Below, piece after piece: positions 1,658 through 40,674 of a stretch of 64,000 nt of DNA. The position numbers and the translations under genes were made by a program. The DNA is from Escherichia phage 215Ecol030PP, in the sequence record PP328843.1. One strand, given 5' to 3'. Positions within the stretch are counted from its first letter, which is position 1, and the number at the start of each line of letters is the position of its first letter. The notes below the pieces were generated by a model that saw only the letters and a program-made list of their open reading frames with translations, did no database searches and had not been told where the DNA came from.

Positions 1658-1846
1658 TTAGTCATAATAATCAGTAACAGTCCAAGCTTCATTTCTATTG
1701 GACATTATTTTTGTATATTCTGCTTTAAATGCATTCTTAAGCATAAATTCAGTAACTATATGCTCTTCATTAGAAAAATTATTTCTCAGAATATATCGTT
1801 TTATTTCAGGAATAGTTAATAGATGCTGTCCAGTTGAATATTCCAT
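1658..1846 (-). CDS. hypothetical small protein (62 aa)
   Basis: ORF in co-directional gene series between 46 and rpbA. Confidence 0.5.
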   Translation of the reverse strand: MEYSTGQHLLTIPEIKRYILRNNFSNEEHIVTEFMLKNAFKAEYTKIMSNRNEAWTVTDYYD

Positions 1847-1901
1847 GTTTTTCCTCCATAGAGATTATACTCTAATAAATTAAAGCATAATCTCTTATAA
1901 A

Positions 1902-3584
1902 TTAAACCATTACAGTAAATCGACCAACTTTCTTCATTTGAAGATGCTGACCATATTCTTGTGGGTCATGGTCTTTATGCGAAATTATAAAAACGTTAGT
2001 GTTTTTCATTGAATTTATAATATTAGCTACACCTTTAATACCTTCGGCATCAAATGACCCATCAAACACTTCATCAAGAATTAATGTACTAATACTAACA
2101 CCAGATACGATAGAAGCAATATCACGCCAAGTAAATAAAAGAGCAATATCAATTCTTGCTTTTTCACCTTCACTAAATGAAGCATAACTAAAATCTTCAC
2201 GACCACGGGATTTAATTGTCTCATTAAATTCTTCATCTAATGTAAACACATAATCCGCTTCCATTATTTTAAGATAATGGTTAATCTGCTTATTAAATAA
2301 TGGAATGTACTTTTTAATAATAGCACCTTTAATACCAGAATCTTTGAGCATATCAGTCAAAATTCCTCGGTGGTATTTTTCCATTACTAAATTAGTTTTT
2401 GTCTTAACAATTTTATCAAGTTCTTCTTGAAGCAGTGCTATTTCATCAGCATGGTCAATAAACTCAGAAGATGCTTTTTCTATAGCCGCTTTAACCTTTT
2501 TGGCTTTATCTACCGTCGTGATTAGAGATTGCTTTTTATTGCGAATATCATTTGCCAACGACTGTTGGGTTTTAATATTATCTCGGTATTCATCAACAAG
2601 AACTTTTAAATTATCACGGTGTGTTGAAAGCTGTTCAAACGAATGCGTGCATTCAGAAACTTTATCTTTAATTTTAGAAACAACTTTATCACCGGAACTT
2701 AATTGTGACAAACAGGTTGGACATAATCCACCTTCGTGATACATATTAATGACTTTATTATACGAGTCAATTTTTGATTTAATTAAAAATGCTTCTTGGC
2801 CGATTTTATTAAATGCATCAGTCGGGTCTTCATCCAAAACAATATTAACTAATCTTTCATTAGCTTCTTCTATTTCCGATTTTAGCGTTCTAGCTTCTTT
2901 TGCCAAATCATCATACATATTTTGAAGACGAGTAAGGTTGTCACCCGTTAATTTTTTCTGGCGTTCAACGTTATCATTATATATTTTAATTTGTTGGATA
3001 ATACTATCTTTTTTAACATCAAGCACTTGGTTCTGCGAATTTAATTCGCGTATTAGTGCTTTATTAAGCTTATCCATTTCAGCTAATGTTCCTACCTCAA
3101 GCAGGTCTTCCACAAGCTTTCTTCGCGCAGGGGTCGACAAACCCATGAAAGGGGTATACCCTGCTGTACCAAGGACAACAATCTGCTTGAAACTGGCATA
3201 TGACATTCCGATAAGCTGTTCAAATTCTGCTTGGAAATCTTTACTGCTGGCAGATTCATTAAGACGTGTACCGTTAACGGTGATTTCGAAAACGTTTGGT
3301 TTTTGTCCTCTTTTGATATAATACTTTTTCTCATCATATTCCATCCACAGTTCAACTAAAAGTTCTTTCTTATTTGTGCTGTTTATTAATTGGCCTTTCT
3401 TTACATCACGAAATGGCTTGCCAAAAAGCCCAAATGTGATGGCTTCTAGCATAGTAGACTTACCACCGCCATTTCGTCCAGTAATAAGAGTTTTTTGAAC
3501 CTTATCTAATTGAATGTCAATCCCATTTTGACCAACTGACATTATATTTTTATATTTTACTCTATTAAGTTTAAAATTCTTCAC
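1902..3584 (-). CDS. 46: recombination endonuclease subunit gp46 (Rad50/SbcC-like ATPase)
   Basis: 560-aa ORF; N-terminal Walker A GRNGGGKST, long central coiled coil, C-terminal LILDEVFDGSFD signature/Walker B region; length equals T4 gp46. Confidence 0.9.
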   Translation of the reverse strand: MKNFKLNRVKYKNIMSVGQNGIDIQLDKVQKTLITGRNGGGKSTMLEAITFGLFGKPFRDVKKGQLINSTNKKELLVELWMEYDEKKYYIKRGQKPNVFEITVNGTRLNESASSKDFQAEFEQLIGMSYASFKQIVVLGTAGYTPFMGLSTPARRKLVEDLLEVGTLAEMDKLNKALIRELNSQNQVLDVKKDSIIQQIKIYNDNVERQKKLTGDNLTRLQNMYDDLAKEARTLKSEIEEANERLVNIVLDEDPTDAFNKIGQEAFLIKSKIDSYNKVINMYHEGGLCPTCLSQLSSGDKVVSKIKDKVSECTHSFEQLSTHRDNLKVLVDEYRDNIKTQQSLANDIRNKKQSLITTVDKAKKVKAAIEKASSEFIDHADEIALLQEELDKIVKTKTNLVMEKYHRGILTDMLKDSGIKGAIIKKYIPLFNKQINHYLKIMEADYVFTLDEEFNETIKSRGREDFSYASFSEGEKARIDIALLFTWRDIASIVSGVSISTLILDEVFDGSFDAEGIKGVANIINSMKNTNVFIISHKDHDPQEYGQHLQMKKVGRFTVMV

Positions 3585-11303: not shown

Positions 11304-11774
11304 TTAATCATGTTTCCACACCCCATCGGTATTTGACCAAAGTCGCTGATTATCTGATCCTCGCCACAACTTTTTGGTCGGAAGATTTTTCTCATACTTC
11401 CCATCAATAATAACATCAACATATTTAAGCATTTCTAGTTGTTTAATATCTTCAAACTTATATCCTGTCCACAACCAGATATCTTTCTTCGGAAATCTTG
11501 CTTTAACCCAAGAAACTAAATTTGAAATCTCTTCTCGGTTCTGTGGATAAAGTGGGTCACCACCGGTTAAGGTAAGGCCTTGGATATACGATTTGCTTAA
11601 ATGGGACGCAAGTTCTTTAACGGTATTCATAGTGAATAACTGTCCGTTACGAGCATTCCAAGTACTACGATTATAACAACCTTCGCATTTATGCAAACAT
11701 CCAGTGACGAAGAGAACGACCCTGCATCCAGGACCATTAACAAAGCAGCACGGGTATATTCTATCATAATTCAT
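11304..11774 (-). CDS. nrdG: anaerobic ribonucleotide reductase activating protein NrdG (radical SAM)
   Basis: MNYDRIYPCCFVNGPGCRVVLFVTGCLHKCEGCYN... (CxxxCxxC cluster motif), 156 aa from the Met at 11774. Confidence 0.85.
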   Translation of the reverse strand: MNYDRIYPCCFVNGPGCRVVLFVTGCLHKCEGCYNRSTWNARNGQLFTMNTVKELASHLSKSYIQGLTLTGGDPLYPQNREEISNLVSWVKARFPKKDIWLWTGYKFEDIKQLEMLKYVDVIIDGKYEKNLPTKKLWRGSDNQRLWSNTDGVWKHD

Positions 11775-12396
11775 CTTTATATTTCCAAGTATATCCCTTA
11801 TGAATAGATTGAATTCCTTTGCAACATTTATAAACAGCAGAATGAAAAAATCCTGCATTTCTTATTTCAGTTGCTCCAGTTAGTTCTATTGTATTTCCGT
11901 CTGGTGAATAGCCAATAACCGTTTTGGTGTTAAAGCGATTTCTAGAACTATTTTTGATATGCTCTTTATGACTAGTAGACAAAGTTCTTCCTGTTAGCCC
12001 ATCAGATATCCTTTTTCCAAAATCATCAGGAAGAGTTACTTTAGACCTAGCTATGCTCATTAGCTTCTTAGTTTTATCGCTTCTTTTTGCGCCACGCTGA
12101 TTTTCAAATTTCTTAGCTTTTGCATACGCGTATTGTGAAGAAGTAACTTTTCTATGCTTACTATTACTCATTATCCAATATGCATCATACATCTTTCCAC
12201 CATATATTTTAGCCAATAAATGGTGAGCAGTATAGTGGGCCTTATAAGTTAAAAATACTAAGTTGTCTAAATCATCTGAACCACCCATACTTCTTGGAAT
12301 TATATGATGAAGTTCATACCCGGCTTTAGTTTGACGGGGCTTAGATGGGTGTTCAGCAGAATTAACTAGATTTGAATAGATTCTGTCATAATTCAT
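11764..12396 (-). mobile_element. freestanding HNH homing endonuclease gene (Mob family, mobC-like position between nrdG and nrdD)
   Basis: 210-aa ORF MNYDRIYSNLVNSAEH..., HNH core HHIIPRSMGGSDDLDNLVFLTYKAHYTAH; stop overlaps the nrdG start. Confidence 0.8.
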
Positions 12397-12408: not shown

Positions 12409-13708
12409 CTATGCATGTTTTACTCGTTTTACCATTTCTTTCATTTTACCTAAATTCCATGGAACAACGCTAGGAGTTCCAAGATATCCGCATGTTCTTC
12501 TTATTGTGTTCATCTTTTTAGGATCAGTTTCTCCACAAATAGAACAAACAAATCCGTTTTCAGTAGGAGTCATTTCATGGGTACTTCCACACGTAAAACA
12601 TTTATCTACTGGCATATTAACACCAAAATAATCTAAATGTTGTGCAGCATAATCCCATACAGCCTCAAGACCTTTTAAGTTATTTTTCATATCAGGAAGT
12701 TCAACATAAGAAATGTGACCACCTGTCGCAATGAAATGATATGGCGCTTCACGAGAAATCTTTTCAAACGGAGTAATATTTTCTTCTACTGAAACATGGA
12801 AACTGTTAGTGTACCAACCTTTATCAGTAACATCCTTTACACTTCCATATTTTTCTGTATCGAGTTTACAGAAGCGATAACAAAGGTTTTCAGCAGGAGT
12901 CGAATATAAACTAAAAGCAAATCCAGTTCTTTCAGTCCACTGTTTAAGACGAGCATTCATTTTAGTTAAAATTTCTCGTCCAATATCACGACCGGCAAGA
13001 ATATTCAATTCGTGAATACCAATGTATCCTAGGGACACTGAACTTCTACCGTTTTTAAATAACTCAATTATGTCGTCATCAGGTTTAAGACGAACCCCGA
13101 ATGCACCTTCTTGGTAAAGAATAGGAGCAACAGTCGCTTTAACTCCTTTTAAGGAACTAATTCTACACATCAAAGCTTCAAAACATAAATCCATTCGCTC
13201 ATTGAATAATTCAGTAAATTTCTGTTCATTGAACTGTGTTCCAATATAAGAATCTAACGCGATGCGAGGAAGATTCAGTGTTACAACACCAAGATTATTA
13301 CGTCCATCAAGAATTTCATTACCAGTCGAATCTTTCCATACGCTCAAGAAACTACGGCAACCCATTGGAGAAACAGGAATAGATGAACCAGTGATAGCTT
13401 TATTGTTCTTAGCTGAAATAATATCAGGATACATCCTTTTGCTTGCACACTCTAGAGCAAGCTGCTTAATATCATAGTTCGGATCGTCTTTATAAAGATT
13501 AACACCTTCTTCAACAAACATAACAAGCTTAGGGAAAATAGGAGTTATCCCATCACGACCGAGACCTTTAATACGATTTTTCAGAATTGCTTTCTGAATC
13601 ATTCGTTCAGTCCAGTCAGTTCCCGTACCAAATGTAATTGTTACAAAAGGAGTCTGTCCGTTTGAACTGAAAAGTGTATTTACTTCATCATTATATTCAG
13701 CATGAGTC
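12409..13708 (-). CDS. nrdD: anaerobic ribonucleotide reductase NrdD, exon 2 (5' boundary approximate, +/-15 nt)
   Basis: Translation ...EVNTLFSSNGQTPFVTITFG... to C-terminal glycyl-radical region (RTCGYLG) and Zn-ribbon CFTCGS...CSICG; no credible start codon of its own. Confidence 0.8.
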
Positions 13709-13714
13709 GCAAAT

Positions 13715-13919
13715 TCATGCTCGTTTATATGAAACAACAAAATTTGGATAGTCCATAGATATGCAACGTTCTTTTATAGTGCTAGGATGAAAATTTAGCG
13801 CTTTAGCTGCTTCTATATAAGACGTATACTTAATACCGTCAACAACCACATATTCAGGAACTTTATGAATAGTAGTCTTTATCTTTTATTTTAGTACAAC
13901 GTCTTTTTATCCATTTCAT
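13715..13919 (-). pseudogene. remnant of intron-encoded homing endonuclease (short N-terminal ORF plus out-of-frame C-terminal DNA-binding motif)
   Basis: ATG at 13917..13919 preceded by GAGGTGAAACA gives MKWIKRRCTKIKDKDYYS-stop; in another frame ...VVDGIKYTSYIEAAKALNFHPSTIKERCISMDYPNFVVSYKRA-stop resembles C-terminal helix-turn-helix tails of phage homing endonucleases. Confidence 0.55.
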
Positions 13920-13948
13920 TGTTTCACCTCGTATTCATAAGATAATCT

Positions 13949-13956
13949 TATTTATA
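13949..13956 (-). promoter_or_regulatory. late promoter (TATAAATA) inside the nrdD intron
   Basis: Minus-strand TATAAATA about 30 nt upstream of the intron ORF start. Confidence 0.55.
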
Positions 13957-14169
13957 CAAGATGACTGCTGCATGTCGCCATGCAGATTAGACTATATCTT
14001 CATCTTTCGATGCCGGCCGTTTCGAATAGCATTAGCTTCTATTCTACACCGCTACATTCATCACGGTTAGTCGTTAGGCATTTAGTTCAAAAGAACATTT
14101 AGCACGGGATTGTCTACTAGAGAGGTTCCCCGTTTAGACCGGTTTTACATGAGCCTGAATTAAATTAAC

Positions 14170-14705
14170 TCATACGCCTGGAATGCATCGTATACATCTT
14201 TTTCTGTTTTAGATTGAGCATAATTCAACGCATCAGCGATTTGCCATTTTTCTGCATCCTCAATATGTTTTGCATAGGTGCGTTTAACATAAGGAGAAAG
14301 TACTTTATCTACATTTGCAAAAGTCGTTCCGCCATATTGATGGGAAGCAACCTGCGCAGTAATTTGTGCCATAATTGCAGTAGCAACGCCAATTGATTTA
14401 GGAGTTTCAATCTGTGCATTACCTAGCTTAAATCCGTTCTCAAGCATTCCTTTTAAATCTACTAAACAGCAATTAGTAAATGGAAGAGCAGGGGAATAAT
14501 CAATATCATGGAAATGGATAATTCCGCTTTCATGCGCTTTCATAATAAAAGACGGGACCATATTTTTGGCAATGTGTTTAGACACAATACCAGCCATAAG
14601 GTCCCGTTGAGTTGGAAAAACACGAGAATCTTTATTAGCATTCTCGTTTAAAAGGTCTTTATTAGTTTTATGAATCAATCCTTCAATTTCTTTTTCAATT
14701 GTCAT
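14170..14705 (-). CDS. nrdD: anaerobic ribonucleotide reductase NrdD, exon 1 (3' boundary approximate)
   Basis: MTIEKEIEGLIHKTNKDLL...KDVYDAFQAY then in-frame stop inside the intron; continues in exon 2. Confidence 0.8.
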
Positions 14706-15175
14706 TTTAAACTCTTTCTAAGCTGCTTCTTAAATGAAGCTATTAACTGTGTTTTGGTGTCAGATTCATTATATTCAAATCCTCTTTGAAGCATCTCGGC
14801 CATCATTTCCTCTTTTCCTAAACGAGAAAATTCCTTTGATTTATCTCCAACAAAGTTAGGGTGAATATTATTTTGGGTGTAATCGGATTTTAAATAAGTA
14901 AGTAAATTTTCTAACCATTCAAGATAATCAACACCTTGTCCCTTTAAGCCAGAACGATTAAATTTATGCTTCATTTGACCTTCTGCAGCATTGCAGAGAT
15001 TACAAAGCAATCCACGTATCTTTCCTGCTTTTGGTCCATTTAATTCATGGTCATGATCAAGATGATTAGCTTGAACATCAGGATTTAGTTCTCGTTGGCA
15101 AATTAAGCATTTACCGTTTTGTGCATTATAAAATTTCTGTTTTTCTTCTTTGTATAATTTGCCAGTCAATAACAT
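14702..15175 (-). CDS. 49: endonuclease VII (Holliday junction resolvase) gp49
   Basis: 157-aa ORF with Zn/HNH-like motif CLICQ...HLDHDHELNGPKAGKIRGLLCNLCN; length equals T4 endo VII. Confidence 0.9.
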   Translation of the reverse strand: MLLTGKLYKEEKQKFYNAQNGKCLICQRELNPDVQANHLDHDHELNGPKAGKIRGLLCNLCNAAEGQMKHKFNRSGLKGQGVDYLEWLENLLTYLKSDYTQNNIHPNFVGDKSKEFSRLGKEEMMAEMLQRGFEYNESDTKTQLIASFKKQLRKSLK

Positions 15176-39196: not shown

Positions 39197-39272
39197 TGGT
39201 CGAGGCAGTAGGGATCGAACCTACGACCCAGGACTTAGAAGGTCCTTGCTCTTCCTTCTGAGCTATGCCCCG
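39197..39272 (-). tRNA. tRNA-Arg (anticodon UCU)
   Basis: Hand-folded cloverleaf: acceptor CGGGGCA/TGCCTCG, anticodon loop CTTCTAA, T-loop TTCGATC, CCA encoded. Confidence 0.8.
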
Positions 39273-39276
39273 TAAT

Positions 39277-39352
39277 TGGGGTGACCGATGGGAGTCGAAC
39301 CCATGACTACGAGAATCACAATCTCGAGTTCTACCAACTGAACTACGGCCAC
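39277..39352 (-). tRNA. tRNA-His (anticodon GUG), no encoded G-1
   Basis: Acceptor GTGGCCG/CGGTCAC, anticodon loop TTGTGAT, discriminator C73, CCA encoded; base at -1 is U. Confidence 0.75.
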
Positions 39353-39466
39353 ATTAATACCTACTCCAACAATCAAGATGTCTTCACACGAAATTAAGAG
39401 AAGAGTGATCAGTTCAACCCCTATAATCGCGTCAAGTAGATATTAATGTGACAGTTGTCACAAATT

Positions 39467-39541
39467 TGGCGGACGTGATAGGATTCGAACCTATAACCAA
39501 TCGCTTAACAGGCGATCGCTCTGCCATTGAGCTACACATCC
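39467..39541 (-). tRNA. tRNA-Asn (anticodon GUU)
   Basis: Acceptor GGATGTG/CACGTCC, D-arm GCTC..GAGC, anticodon loop CTGTTAA, T-loop TTCGAAT, CCA encoded. Confidence 0.8.
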
Positions 39542-39545
39542 AAAT

Positions 39546-39632
39546 TGGTGGGGAGTGATGGAGTCGAACCACCCGAGTCGCAATGACAATGGATTTACAG
39601 TCCACACCGCTACCTCTACGGGATAACTCCCC
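39546..39632 (-). tRNA. tRNA-Tyr (anticodon GUA), long variable arm
   Basis: Acceptor GGGGAGT/ACTCCCC, anticodon loop CTGTAAA, about 14-nt variable arm, T-loop TTCGACT, CCA encoded. Confidence 0.75.
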
Positions 39633-39645
39633 TTAATTCTTAATT

Positions 39646-39720
39646 TGGTGGCCCTGGGTGGAATTGAACCACCATCTGGCGATTATGAGTCGCTTGCTTG
39701 AACCTTCCAGCTACAGGGCC
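39646..39720 (-). tRNA. tRNA with anticodon CAU (probably Ile, lysidine-type, as in T4; Met by naive reading)
   Basis: Acceptor GGCCCTG/CAGGGCC, anticodon loop CTCATAA, T-loop TTCAATT, CCA encoded. Confidence 0.7.
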
Positions 39721-39728
39721 AAATTTTC

Positions 39729-40214
39729 TTATTTTATGTAATATTTATTTAAAAACTTTCTAGCTTGAGTATGGCTAACATTTATAGCGTTTGCATAATT
39801 TTTAATAAAACCTCGTTCATCCATATTAAAATTTTCTAATATTTTTAATCGTCTAGTTATCTCATCTTGACTTAAGGTACTTGCATTATTTTTAGAAATT
39901 TTTTCTAAGGACTGTGCCGAGTGTTTTCGACCATTAAAATTAAAATTTTTAGATTTTGGAGGAAATCTAGCATTTAATCTCGCATCTTTTGTATTTTGAT
40001 TATTAGTTGCGCAATATATGTTATTTAATGAATATGGTCCTTTATCGCCGAAACGGCACATGCAGTATTCATGACCCTTTCTTCCACGCTTATCATAATT
40101 TCCCGTTGATTTCCACCAATGCAGCCATTCATCAAAAGTTAAATTCCATTCAATGTTTCTACGTATAGCAGAATTCCGCTGAGAAATATATTTTGCATAA
40201 TCTTCTTTCATCAC
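39729..40214 (-). CDS. hypothetical basic protein inside the tRNA cluster (segB position), possible DNA-binding/nuclease-like; family unresolved
   Basis: 161-aa ORF; no GIY-YIG or HNH motif recognised; Cys/His cluster GHEYCMCRFGDKGPYSLNNIYC and C-terminal helix-turn-helix-like tail. Confidence 0.45.
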   Translation of the reverse strand: MMKEDYAKYISQRNSAIRRNIEWNLTFDEWLHWWKSTGNYDKRGRKGHEYCMCRFGDKGPYSLNNIYCATNNQNTKDARLNARFPPKSKNFNFNGRKHSAQSLEKISKNNASTLSQDEITRRLKILENFNMDERGFIKNYANAINVSHTQARKFLNKYYIK

Positions 40215-40258
40215 AAATTTCTCTACTTATTCAATACACTGAGCTAAATCAGCAAAAC

Positions 40259-40348
40259 TGGCGGAGGCGATAGGATTTGAACCTATGAGTCGCCGGAGCG
40301 ACTGCCGGTTTTCAAGACCGGTGCATTAAACCACTCTGCCACGCCTCC
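40259..40348 (-). tRNA. tRNA-Ser (anticodon UGA), long variable arm
   Basis: Acceptor GGAGGCG/CGCCTCC, anticodon loop CTTGAAA, long variable arm, CCA encoded. Confidence 0.8.
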
Positions 40349-40350
40349 AG

Positions 40351-40424
40351 TCTCCGCGGCAGGATTTGAACCTACGACATTCTGCTCCCAAAGCAGACGC
40401 TCTACCAAACTGAGCTACACGGAG
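40351..40424 (-). tRNA. tRNA-Pro (anticodon UGG)
   Basis: Acceptor CTCCGTG/CGCGGAG, D-arm GCTC..GAGC, anticodon loop TTTGGGA, T-loop TTCAAAT. Confidence 0.8.
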
Positions 40425-40434
40425 TAAATTAAAT

Positions 40435-40508
<74 letters not shown>

Positions 40509-40513
40509 AAATT

Positions 40514-40600
40514 TGGTGCGAGAAGTGGGACTCGAACCCACAAGGAAATCATTCCGCAGCATTTTAAGTGCTGTGCCTTTACCAATTTGGCCATTCTCGC
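40514..40600 (-). tRNA. tRNA-Leu (anticodon UAA), long variable arm
   Basis: Acceptor GCGAGAA/TTCTCGC, anticodon loop CTTAAAA, long variable arm, T-loop TTCGAGT, CCA encoded. Confidence 0.8.
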
Positions 40601-40601
40601 G

Positions 40602-40674
40602 CTGGGAATAAAGGACTCGAACCTTTGCATCCTGGAATCAAAATCCAGTGCCTTACCAACTTGGCTAATTCCCA
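40602..40674 (-). tRNA. tRNA-Gln (anticodon UUG)
   Basis: Acceptor TGGGAAT/ATTCCCA, anticodon loop TTTTGAT, T-loop TTCGAGT. Confidence 0.8.

Follow-up and report, generated by a model that had tools for sequence, protein, structure and literature searches.

Endonuclease loss through a single internal deletion as the probable history of a group I intron in nrdD of a T4-like Escherichia phage

The nrdD gene of Escherichia phage 215Ecol030PP (PP328843.1) very probably carries a self-splicing group I intron which occupies the site of the T4 nrdD (sunY) intron, belongs to a sister lineage of it, and has lost its homing-endonuclease gene through a single 566-bp deletion. Our analysis covered a stretch of 64,000 nucleotides of this genome (hereafter the window, whose positions are used as coordinates throughout). 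The window comes from a T4-like (Tequatrovirus-like) phage: the best matches to a 25-kb sample of it in the phage collection reach about 96-97% identity over about 91% of the sample, and no identical match was found there.

Results

The split nrdD gene and its surroundings

The genes around nrdD all lie on the minus strand in the same order as in T4, and nrdD itself is split into two reading frames, as the first-pass annotation of this DNA had recognised:

14702-15175, minus: gene 49 (endonuclease VII)
14168-14705, minus: nrdD exon 1, 538 nt, with 3' end ...GCGUAUGAGU (ORF list, T4 nrdD alignment, in-silico splice)
13689-14167, minus: group I intron, 479 nt (Rfam RF00028; boundaries from the T4 alignment)
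12409-13688, minus: nrdD exon 2, 1280 nt with the stop (T4 alignment, in-silico splice)
11764-12396, minus: mobC, a free-standing HNH homing-endonuclease gene just downstream of nrdD (comparison with T4, Pfam)
11304-11774, minus: nrdG

Removing the intron in silico restores the nrdD reading frame: 14168-14705 joined to 12409-13688 encodes a NrdD of 605 aa that ends in a single terminal stop and is identical to T4 NrdD at 590 of 605 residues (97.5%). At the predicted ligated junction ...GCGUAUGAGU is followed directly by AUGAAGUAAAU..., the longer exon-2 side being AUGAAGUAAAUACAC. The boundaries were set by T4, where a gene span of 2851 nt less 1818 coding nt leaves an intron of 1033 nt. An intervening sequence of about 460 nt had been proposed at 13709-14169; it is indeed present, with a true length of 479 nt at 13689-14167, so that the proposed boundaries miss the true ones by 2 nt on the 5' side and by 20 nt on the 3' side. 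Position 13709 is not the 3' splice site but lies directly beyond the stop codon that ends the endonuclease remnant described below. The intron starts with UAAUUUAAUU, which introduces an in-frame UAA three codons in, and ends with ...AAUAUAAUG, its terminal G at 13689. The insertion site, between ...UAUGAGU and AUGAAGU..., is the same as that of the T4 nrdD (sunY) intron and splits the Tyr180 codon after its first base. For annotation, this means that gene callers give two nrdD ORFs here which need to be joined across 13689-14167.

An exact-protein look-up finds the exon-1 product in many contigs. At all ten of the places listed there is an endonuclease ORF of full-length size, which in one of the ten (236Ecol005PP) is broken by a +1 frameshift.

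Several features of the surrounding region are worth recording in their own right. The MobC protein has a Pfam HNH match (E = 5.5e-6) and is identical to T4 MobC at 209 of 210 residues. The NrdD C-terminus that adjoins mobC (residues 584-605; 12409-12480, minus) differs from T4 at 11 of 22 residues (GTPSVVPWNLGKMKEMVKRVKHA in the window versus GNPNERGFNLGKNKEIMHRVKHQ in T4), whereas the remaining protein is about 99% identical. The gene at the nrdD-nrdG junction varies between phages: BYEP01 (OR757453.1) has one for a NUMOD3 protein, JM10 has none, and the window shares mobC with T4. Additionally, mobC (12376-12396, minus) and nrdG (11754-11774, minus) begin with the same seven residues, MNYDRIY, likewise in T4, and it looks like the 5' end of nrdG was duplicated when mobC inserted between nrdD and nrdG. 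Far from this locus, Rfam reports ten tRNA matches in two groups (39200-40674, minus), one of which (39551-39630) is barely above threshold at 30.2 bits versus 29; a 161-aa ORF (39729-40214) lies between the two groups, in the gap where T4 carries segB.

Group I ribozyme

The group I assignment is borne out by the Rfam Intron_gpI model (RF00028), which matches 13968-14203 on the minus strand at 70.9 bits (E = 5.5e-16), well clear of its gathering score of 50. The match covers model positions 1-253 of 253, is of the phage IA2 type and is the sole Rfam intron match within the window. The parts of the ribozyme are as follows:

13968-14167, minus: ribozyme core, intron positions 1-200, with the P1 3' strand/internal guide, P3-P6, P6a, P7, P7.1, P7.2, P8 and P9
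13699-13721, minus: P9.2 hairpin AGCAUGA/UCAUGCU, seven standard pairs
13689-13691, minus: last three intron bases, the P9.0 3' strand plus the terminal G; AU pairs with A181 and U182 of J7/9

We drew the helices from the Rfam alignment and the T4 comparison and then checked each pair. Pairs are standard throughout P1, P10, P3, P4, P5, P6, P6a, P7, P7.1, P7.2, P8, P9, P9.0 and P9.2, which includes all pairs of the P3/P7 pseudoknot and of the core helices P3-P8. In P1, exon bases AUGAGU (14168-14173) pair with intron GCUCAU, with a U(-1).G14 wobble at the 5' splice site, and in P10, exon 2 bases 2-5 (UGAA) can pair with intron UUCA. An unconstrained minimum-energy fold of the intron (-133.9 kcal/mol, z = -5.58 versus 100 shuffles) recovers P3, P4, P5, P6, P6a, P7.1, P7.2, P8 and P9. 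From the model match and this predicted structure, we identify the feature as a group I intron that is predicted to be self-splicing. One element is lacking from this picture: in T4 an outer helix can be drawn just after P9 (CUGUUUAU/AUAAACGG), and no obvious counterpart of such a P9.1-type helix was found in the lineage of the window, which leaves our model of the 3' domain incomplete.

Relationship to the T4 intron

The first-pass annotation had likened the 5' part of the interval to the T4 sunY ribozyme core and had correctly described the T4 intron as about 1 kb long with an intact I-TevII gene (1033 nt and 258 aa). The likeness holds as far as family and site are concerned, but not as descent from T4. 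We considered the possibility that the window intron is a deletion derivative of the T4 intron itself and rejected it: over 220 nt the core is 73.8% identical to that of T4, compared with 100% to the sister lineage introduced below.

The overall layout is common to both introns, with a catalytic core followed by an ORF in the 3' loop and then by P9.2 and P9.0, and both have a late promoter and a hairpin that hides the ribosome-binding site (RBS). P7.2 is longer and P8 shorter in the window, and at the place equivalent to P9.2, T4 has GGUAGAG/CUCUACU (read by hand from the alignment). Mapping the pairs onto the T4 intron, we found 47 unchanged, 7 changed on one side, and 14 changed on both sides and still pairing. 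The double compensatory changes lie in P3, P4, P6a, P7.1, P7.2, P9.0 and P9.2; for instance, a P9.0 pair is U-A in the window and A-U in T4. For P9.2 the automatic column mapping gave one double change, a figure to be read with the knowledge that a 1-nt gap disturbs the mapping there, and the 16 apparent non-pairs of the mapping stem from alignment indels and an indexing offset in the long-range helix (see below), with no real mismatches among them. The shared site, the 73.8% core identity and the resemblance of the parental ORF to I-TevII (56% identity) bear out the proposed homology to the sunY intron, and the sequence comparison as a whole supports placing the window intron in the T4 nrdD (sunY) family as a distinct lineage.

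A different relationship appears in one part of the core. The 42 nt at 14097-14138 (minus; intron positions 30-71, P3 through P4/P5) are 100% identical to the intron that T6 and many other T-even phages carry in td, the thymidylate synthase gene, whereas the nrdD intron of T4 has a different sequence there. Core segments may thus have been exchanged between different introns of the same phage.

The 566-nt deletion in the endonuclease gene

The window core is 100% identical to that of many coliphage, Shigella-phage and Salmonella-phage genomes. The full-length form of this sister lineage is 1045 nt long and is present in 44 phage records (RefSeq/GenBank duplicates counted), for example 235Ecol030PP, JM10, HY03 and SHSML-52-1, with the same site and the same flanking exons as the window. 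Full-length copies with an uninterrupted frame encode a 256-aa protein that aligns with I-TevII from end to end at 56% identity (E = 1e-101) and has Pfam matches to SegE_GIY-YIG (residues 9-86) and NUMOD1.

The 479 nt retained in the window are 100% identical to the 235Ecol030PP intron and differ from the JM10 intron by 1 nt. The sole other difference from these two is a 566-nt gap flanked by the 5-nt repeat AAGAC; in the full-length sequence the left endpoint reads ...GATAAAGAC and then GCATTT..., and the right endpoint ...GTATTAAGAC and then TACTAT.... The deletion endpoints could in this way be mapped by alignment to within the ORF. The loss extends over codons 16-202, from the nuclease domain through the linker to the first NUMOD1-like helix-turn-helix inclusive; nearly all of the SegE_GIY-YIG region has gone (residues 16-86 of 9-86), and since 566 is not divisible by three, the frame is shifted. 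What is left of the gene and its signals is the following:

13949-13956, minus: late-promoter consensus TATAAATA (from the sequence; aligns with the T4 intron motif; putatively active)
13927-13961, minus: RBS hairpin, GAGG (13927-13930) paired with UCUUGUAU, eight standard pairs (minimum-energy fold)
13908-13926, minus: 5' strand of a long-range helix, UGAAACAAUGAAAU...GGAUA, which includes the endonuclease ATG (minimum-energy fold)
13863-13919, minus: remnant ORF of 18 codons, MKWIKRRCTKIKDKDYYS then stop (translation; ATG 13917-13919, stop 13863-13865)
13875-13879, minus: deletion junction, a single AAGAC where the full-length form has two copies 566 nt apart (alignments with 235Ecol030PP and JM10)
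13715-13879, minus: C-terminal 54 codons and stop of the endonuclease, KTTIHKVPEYVVVDGIKYTSYIEAAKALNFHPSTIKERCISMDYPNFVVSYKRA then stop, in the +1 frame relative to the ATG and without an RBS of its own
13730-13750, minus: 3' strand of the long-range helix, UAUCC...AUUUUGUUGUUUCA, in the last endonuclease codons (minimum-energy fold)

Most of these remnants had been spotted before, namely the late promoter and GAGG upstream of the ATG (the promoter presumably being active), the 18-codon ORF and the C-terminal tail in another frame, and all are present. The first 15 codons of the short ORF are native to the I-TevII-like gene, while YYS-stop is the out-of-frame readout past the junction. The tail of 54 residues, which includes ...IEAAKALNFHPSTIKERCIS... 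and ends in ...IEAAKALNFHPSTIKERCISMDYPNFVVSYKRA, aligns to I-TevII residues 205-256. No intact endonuclease ORF with a GIY-YIG domain is left, translation from the ATG stopping after 18 codons, and in this respect the element is not a homing intron with an endonuclease of its own. On the other hand, the promoter, hairpin, RBS, start codon and both ORF stubs show no change besides the deletion. The endonuclease had been described as decaying, which does not agree with a single deletion and 479 retained nucleotides identical to an intact relative; judged from these alignments, the gene was killed by one clean deletion and there was no gradual erosion. Short-homology recombination or replication slippage between the AAGAC repeats would be the likely cause.

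The intact signals raise the question of expression. In T4, the counterpart of the RBS hairpin is CCUCGUAU/AUACGAGG, and relative to it a 9-nt insertion upstream of the ORF puts an extra stem atop the hairpin of the window. The same arrangement is described for the three T4 intron endonucleases, where early read-through transcripts mask the RBS, and late transcripts start within the hairpin and so expose it (PMC2988022). A late promoter, a regulated RBS and an ATG that are all intact could suggest that the remnants have a function, either a role for the 18-residue peptide or a use of the 54-residue tail, which aligns to the DNA-binding C-terminal region of I-TevII, as a small repressor or decoy for I-TevII-type enzymes; I-TevI, for comparison, is an autorepressor through DNA binding (PMC2988022). 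We find this hardly credible, given that the tail lies in another frame than the ATG and has a GTG without an RBS as its sole candidate start, that Pfam found no significant match in the C-terminal fragment alone, that the independent deletion in BYEP01 leaves a different and smaller remnant, and that perfect identity to the parent speaks of a fresh lesion and not of an adapted product.

An artefact has to be weighed as well: the 566-nt gap might have arisen in assembly or sequencing, or during laboratory propagation, and not be a natural allele. The exact junction (as a 32-nt query) is absent from the phage collection, IMG/VR, GTDB genome contigs and JGI metagenomes, and the exon-2 ORF product has no entry on exact-protein look-up, both of which would fit such an origin, while the identity of the rest of the intron to intact relatives is expected of a very recent event as much as of an artefactual one. 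We nevertheless regard an artefact as quite improbable. Clean deletions between 5-nt repeats are typical of genuine illegitimate recombination, short-read assemblers seldom collapse 566 nt of unique sequence across a 5-nt repeat, and BYEP01 carries an equivalent, independent deletion in another isolate; a deletion acquired in the laboratory would, moreover, still be a genuine biological allele.

Expected consequences for splicing and mobility

The deletion lies wholly inside the ORF loop and leaves the 5' core, P9.0, P9.2 and the helix closing the ORF loop untouched. Both strands of the long-range helix between the ATG region and the ORF 3' end are kept in the window and in the BYEP01 deletion, and T4 can form an equivalent pairing, UGAAACGAUG/CAUUGUUUCA (read from the alignment); this helix may have a function. 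Because the deletion is confined to the ORF loop and spares both strands of the helix, splicing would be expected to be unaffected, and the pre-mRNA should still yield full-length NrdD. With no endonuclease made, the intron would be unable to home by itself and could spread only passively, by ordinary recombination, with the help of a co-infecting relative's intact endonuclease, or by gene conversion from a neighbouring endonuclease site.

A contrary outcome can be envisaged, in which the deletion disabled splicing, for example through misfolding of the 3' domain, and nrdD persists as a pseudogene tolerated where anaerobic ribonucleotide reduction is dispensable in the growth conditions. The gene is in fact dispensable for T4 growth in air, so that the viability of the phage is no proof that the shortened intron splices. 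In the minimum-energy fold, moreover, 3' sequence captures a portion of the guide region, so that P1 does not form cleanly, and a P9.1-type outer helix is not evident in the lineage. Yet no core or 3'-terminal helix was touched by the deletion, and engineered sunY derivatives without the ORF are catalytically active in vitro. Both exons are intact, free of additional stops and 97.5% identical to T4 NrdD, but this last argument is a weak one, as no substitution has occurred since the deletion and exon decay could not yet have set in. On balance, loss of splicing seems decidedly unlikely to us, and an intron that still splices remains our preferred reading.

Other inactivated alleles

We collected 15 distinct alleles of this intron lineage, and in 5 of the 15 the endonuclease gene is dead:

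Window allele: 566-nt deletion
BYEP01 allele (OR757453.1): 700-nt deletion
F1/FN allele: +1 in an A-run
F27 allele: -1 in an A-run
236Ecol005PP allele: +1

The A-run frameshifts of F1/FN and F27 could be sequencing errors. The BYEP01 intron, of the same lineage and 345 nt long, has lost 700 nt between the imperfect repeats ATAAAAAGACGTTG and ATAAAAGAACGTTG. Like the window intron it has one internal deletion with the core and the 3' end untouched, but the endpoints are other ones and the remnant is different and smaller, so the two deletions are independent. The free-standing endonuclease neighbour also differs, being the NUMOD3 protein in BYEP01 and mobC in the window. As a side effect of the BYEP01 deletion, the endonuclease ATG is in frame with nrdD exon 2 (locus 1798-3174), for which reason the depositors annotated a single ORF that starts in the intron and continues through the splice site to exon 2.

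Inactivation is also seen outside this lineage. The U5 nrdD intron (AY262145.2, a deposit from the T-even intron survey of Sandegren & Sjöberg 2004) is of the T4 type, and a 2-nt deletion stops its I-TevII ORF at 39 codons; at 1031 nt its length is nearly unchanged, a small frameshift in contrast to the large deletion of the window. The classic precedent is the T4 nrdB intron. Its I-TevIII gene is described as having arisen by deletion from the intact form seen in RB3 (Eddy & Gold 1991), and the intron as having no mobility of its own, in the passages of PMC2988022 and PMC1865063 that deal with it; it is still inherited efficiently because neighbouring MobE nicks nrdB (PMC2790892). As in the window, the ribozyme has been retained and the endonuclease inactivated by a large internal deletion, albeit in another gene, in an endonuclease of the HNH family and with the ORF in a different loop.

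Distribution and diversity of the intron

About 820 related phage records match the nrdD region and about 70 have an intron at this site, comprising 44 full-length copies of the sister lineage, 1 of the BYEP01 form and 25 of the T4 type, all counts including RefSeq/GenBank duplicate records. Most relatives are therefore intron-less and empty target sites are abundant. Sequence identity among copies of the lineage is 99% or more, and the ORF and the ribozyme are alike in how few substitutions they carry: there are about 12 variable sites in the 771 nt of the ORF and 8 in the 274 nt that are ribozyme only, 4 of those 8 from a single event. The MAFFT alignment of the lineage misplaced the tail of the window sequence, and the columns in which the window alone differs are artefacts of this.

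This bears on the statement, made in the first-pass annotation, that the ribozyme is under selection while the endonuclease decays. Within the lineage this is not seen, diversity being too low in ribozyme and ORF alike. Structural constraint is visible, as far as sequence comparison goes, in the 14 compensated pairs relative to the T4 lineage and in a P6a variant of FL44, in which GUUC/GAAC is replaced by GUUUU/AAAAC, a compensated change.

Similar cores in other phage introns

We also noted a 25-nt motif spanning J8/7, P7 and P9 (TGAAGATATAGTCTRAWCTGCATGG) which occurs exactly in 115 IMG/VR viral contigs (L003-L117). Nearly all of these are unrelated group I introns of other phages or genes, and one is a T4-type nrdD intron; by this sequence measure the segment appears remarkably conserved across phage group I introns. 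The cores of rV5-like and FelixO1-like phages, at about 80% identity and with HNH endonuclease ORFs, were rejected as copies of the same intron. Four IMG/VR contigs (L022, L087, L090 and L112) have cores 75-78% identical in the nrdD of unrelated phages, with the intron located between NrdD residues 282 and 290 instead of at residue 180. The nrdD match of L112 comes in six segments, so that several intervening sequences may be present there.

Discussion

The exact junction of the window allele is new, while the type of event is well known and the same gene has often been knocked out independently. What the allele offers is a base-resolved snapshot of how a phage intron loses its homing endonuclease, through a single deletion between 5-nt repeats. 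Additionally, the shortened introns of the window (479 nt) and BYEP01 (345 nt) could serve as compact ribozyme variants of natural origin.

The intron had been proposed as an intermediate in the cycle of endonuclease gain and loss. One part of this idea stands, namely that the intron was kept and the endonuclease is dead. The other part does not fit with the distribution of the intron. In the classical cycle, known as the Goddard-Burt model, the endonuclease decays after fixation, once empty sites are exhausted and selection is relaxed. Here, only about 70 of about 820 records have the intron, and since empty sites are abundant, the window allele is a sporadic loss of function and not decay after fixation.

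A more speculative extension, which we think unlikely, concerns the neighbouring endonuclease. Comparison of the alleles would allow that the intron is moved into intron-less phages by MobC, encoded 1.3 kb downstream, and, given that the window and BYEP01 deletions both spare the long-range helix, that the two may mark the smallest 3' domain tolerated in vivo. MobC would then play the part that MobE plays in T4, where it drives trans-homing of the nrdB intron with its defunct I-TevIII gene. If this were true, losing its own endonuclease would cost the intron little, and repeated loss (window, BYEP01, F1, F27, 236Ecol005PP, U5) would be expected from the redundancy provided by a neighbouring endonuclease.

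Overall, an endonuclease gene that has been inactivated repeatedly, by deletion in the window and BYEP01, by frameshifts and in U5, although most relatives still offer empty sites, fits the textbook gain/loss cycle poorly. Sporadic loss that happens often, or redundancy with neighbouring free-standing endonucleases, would account for the pattern better.
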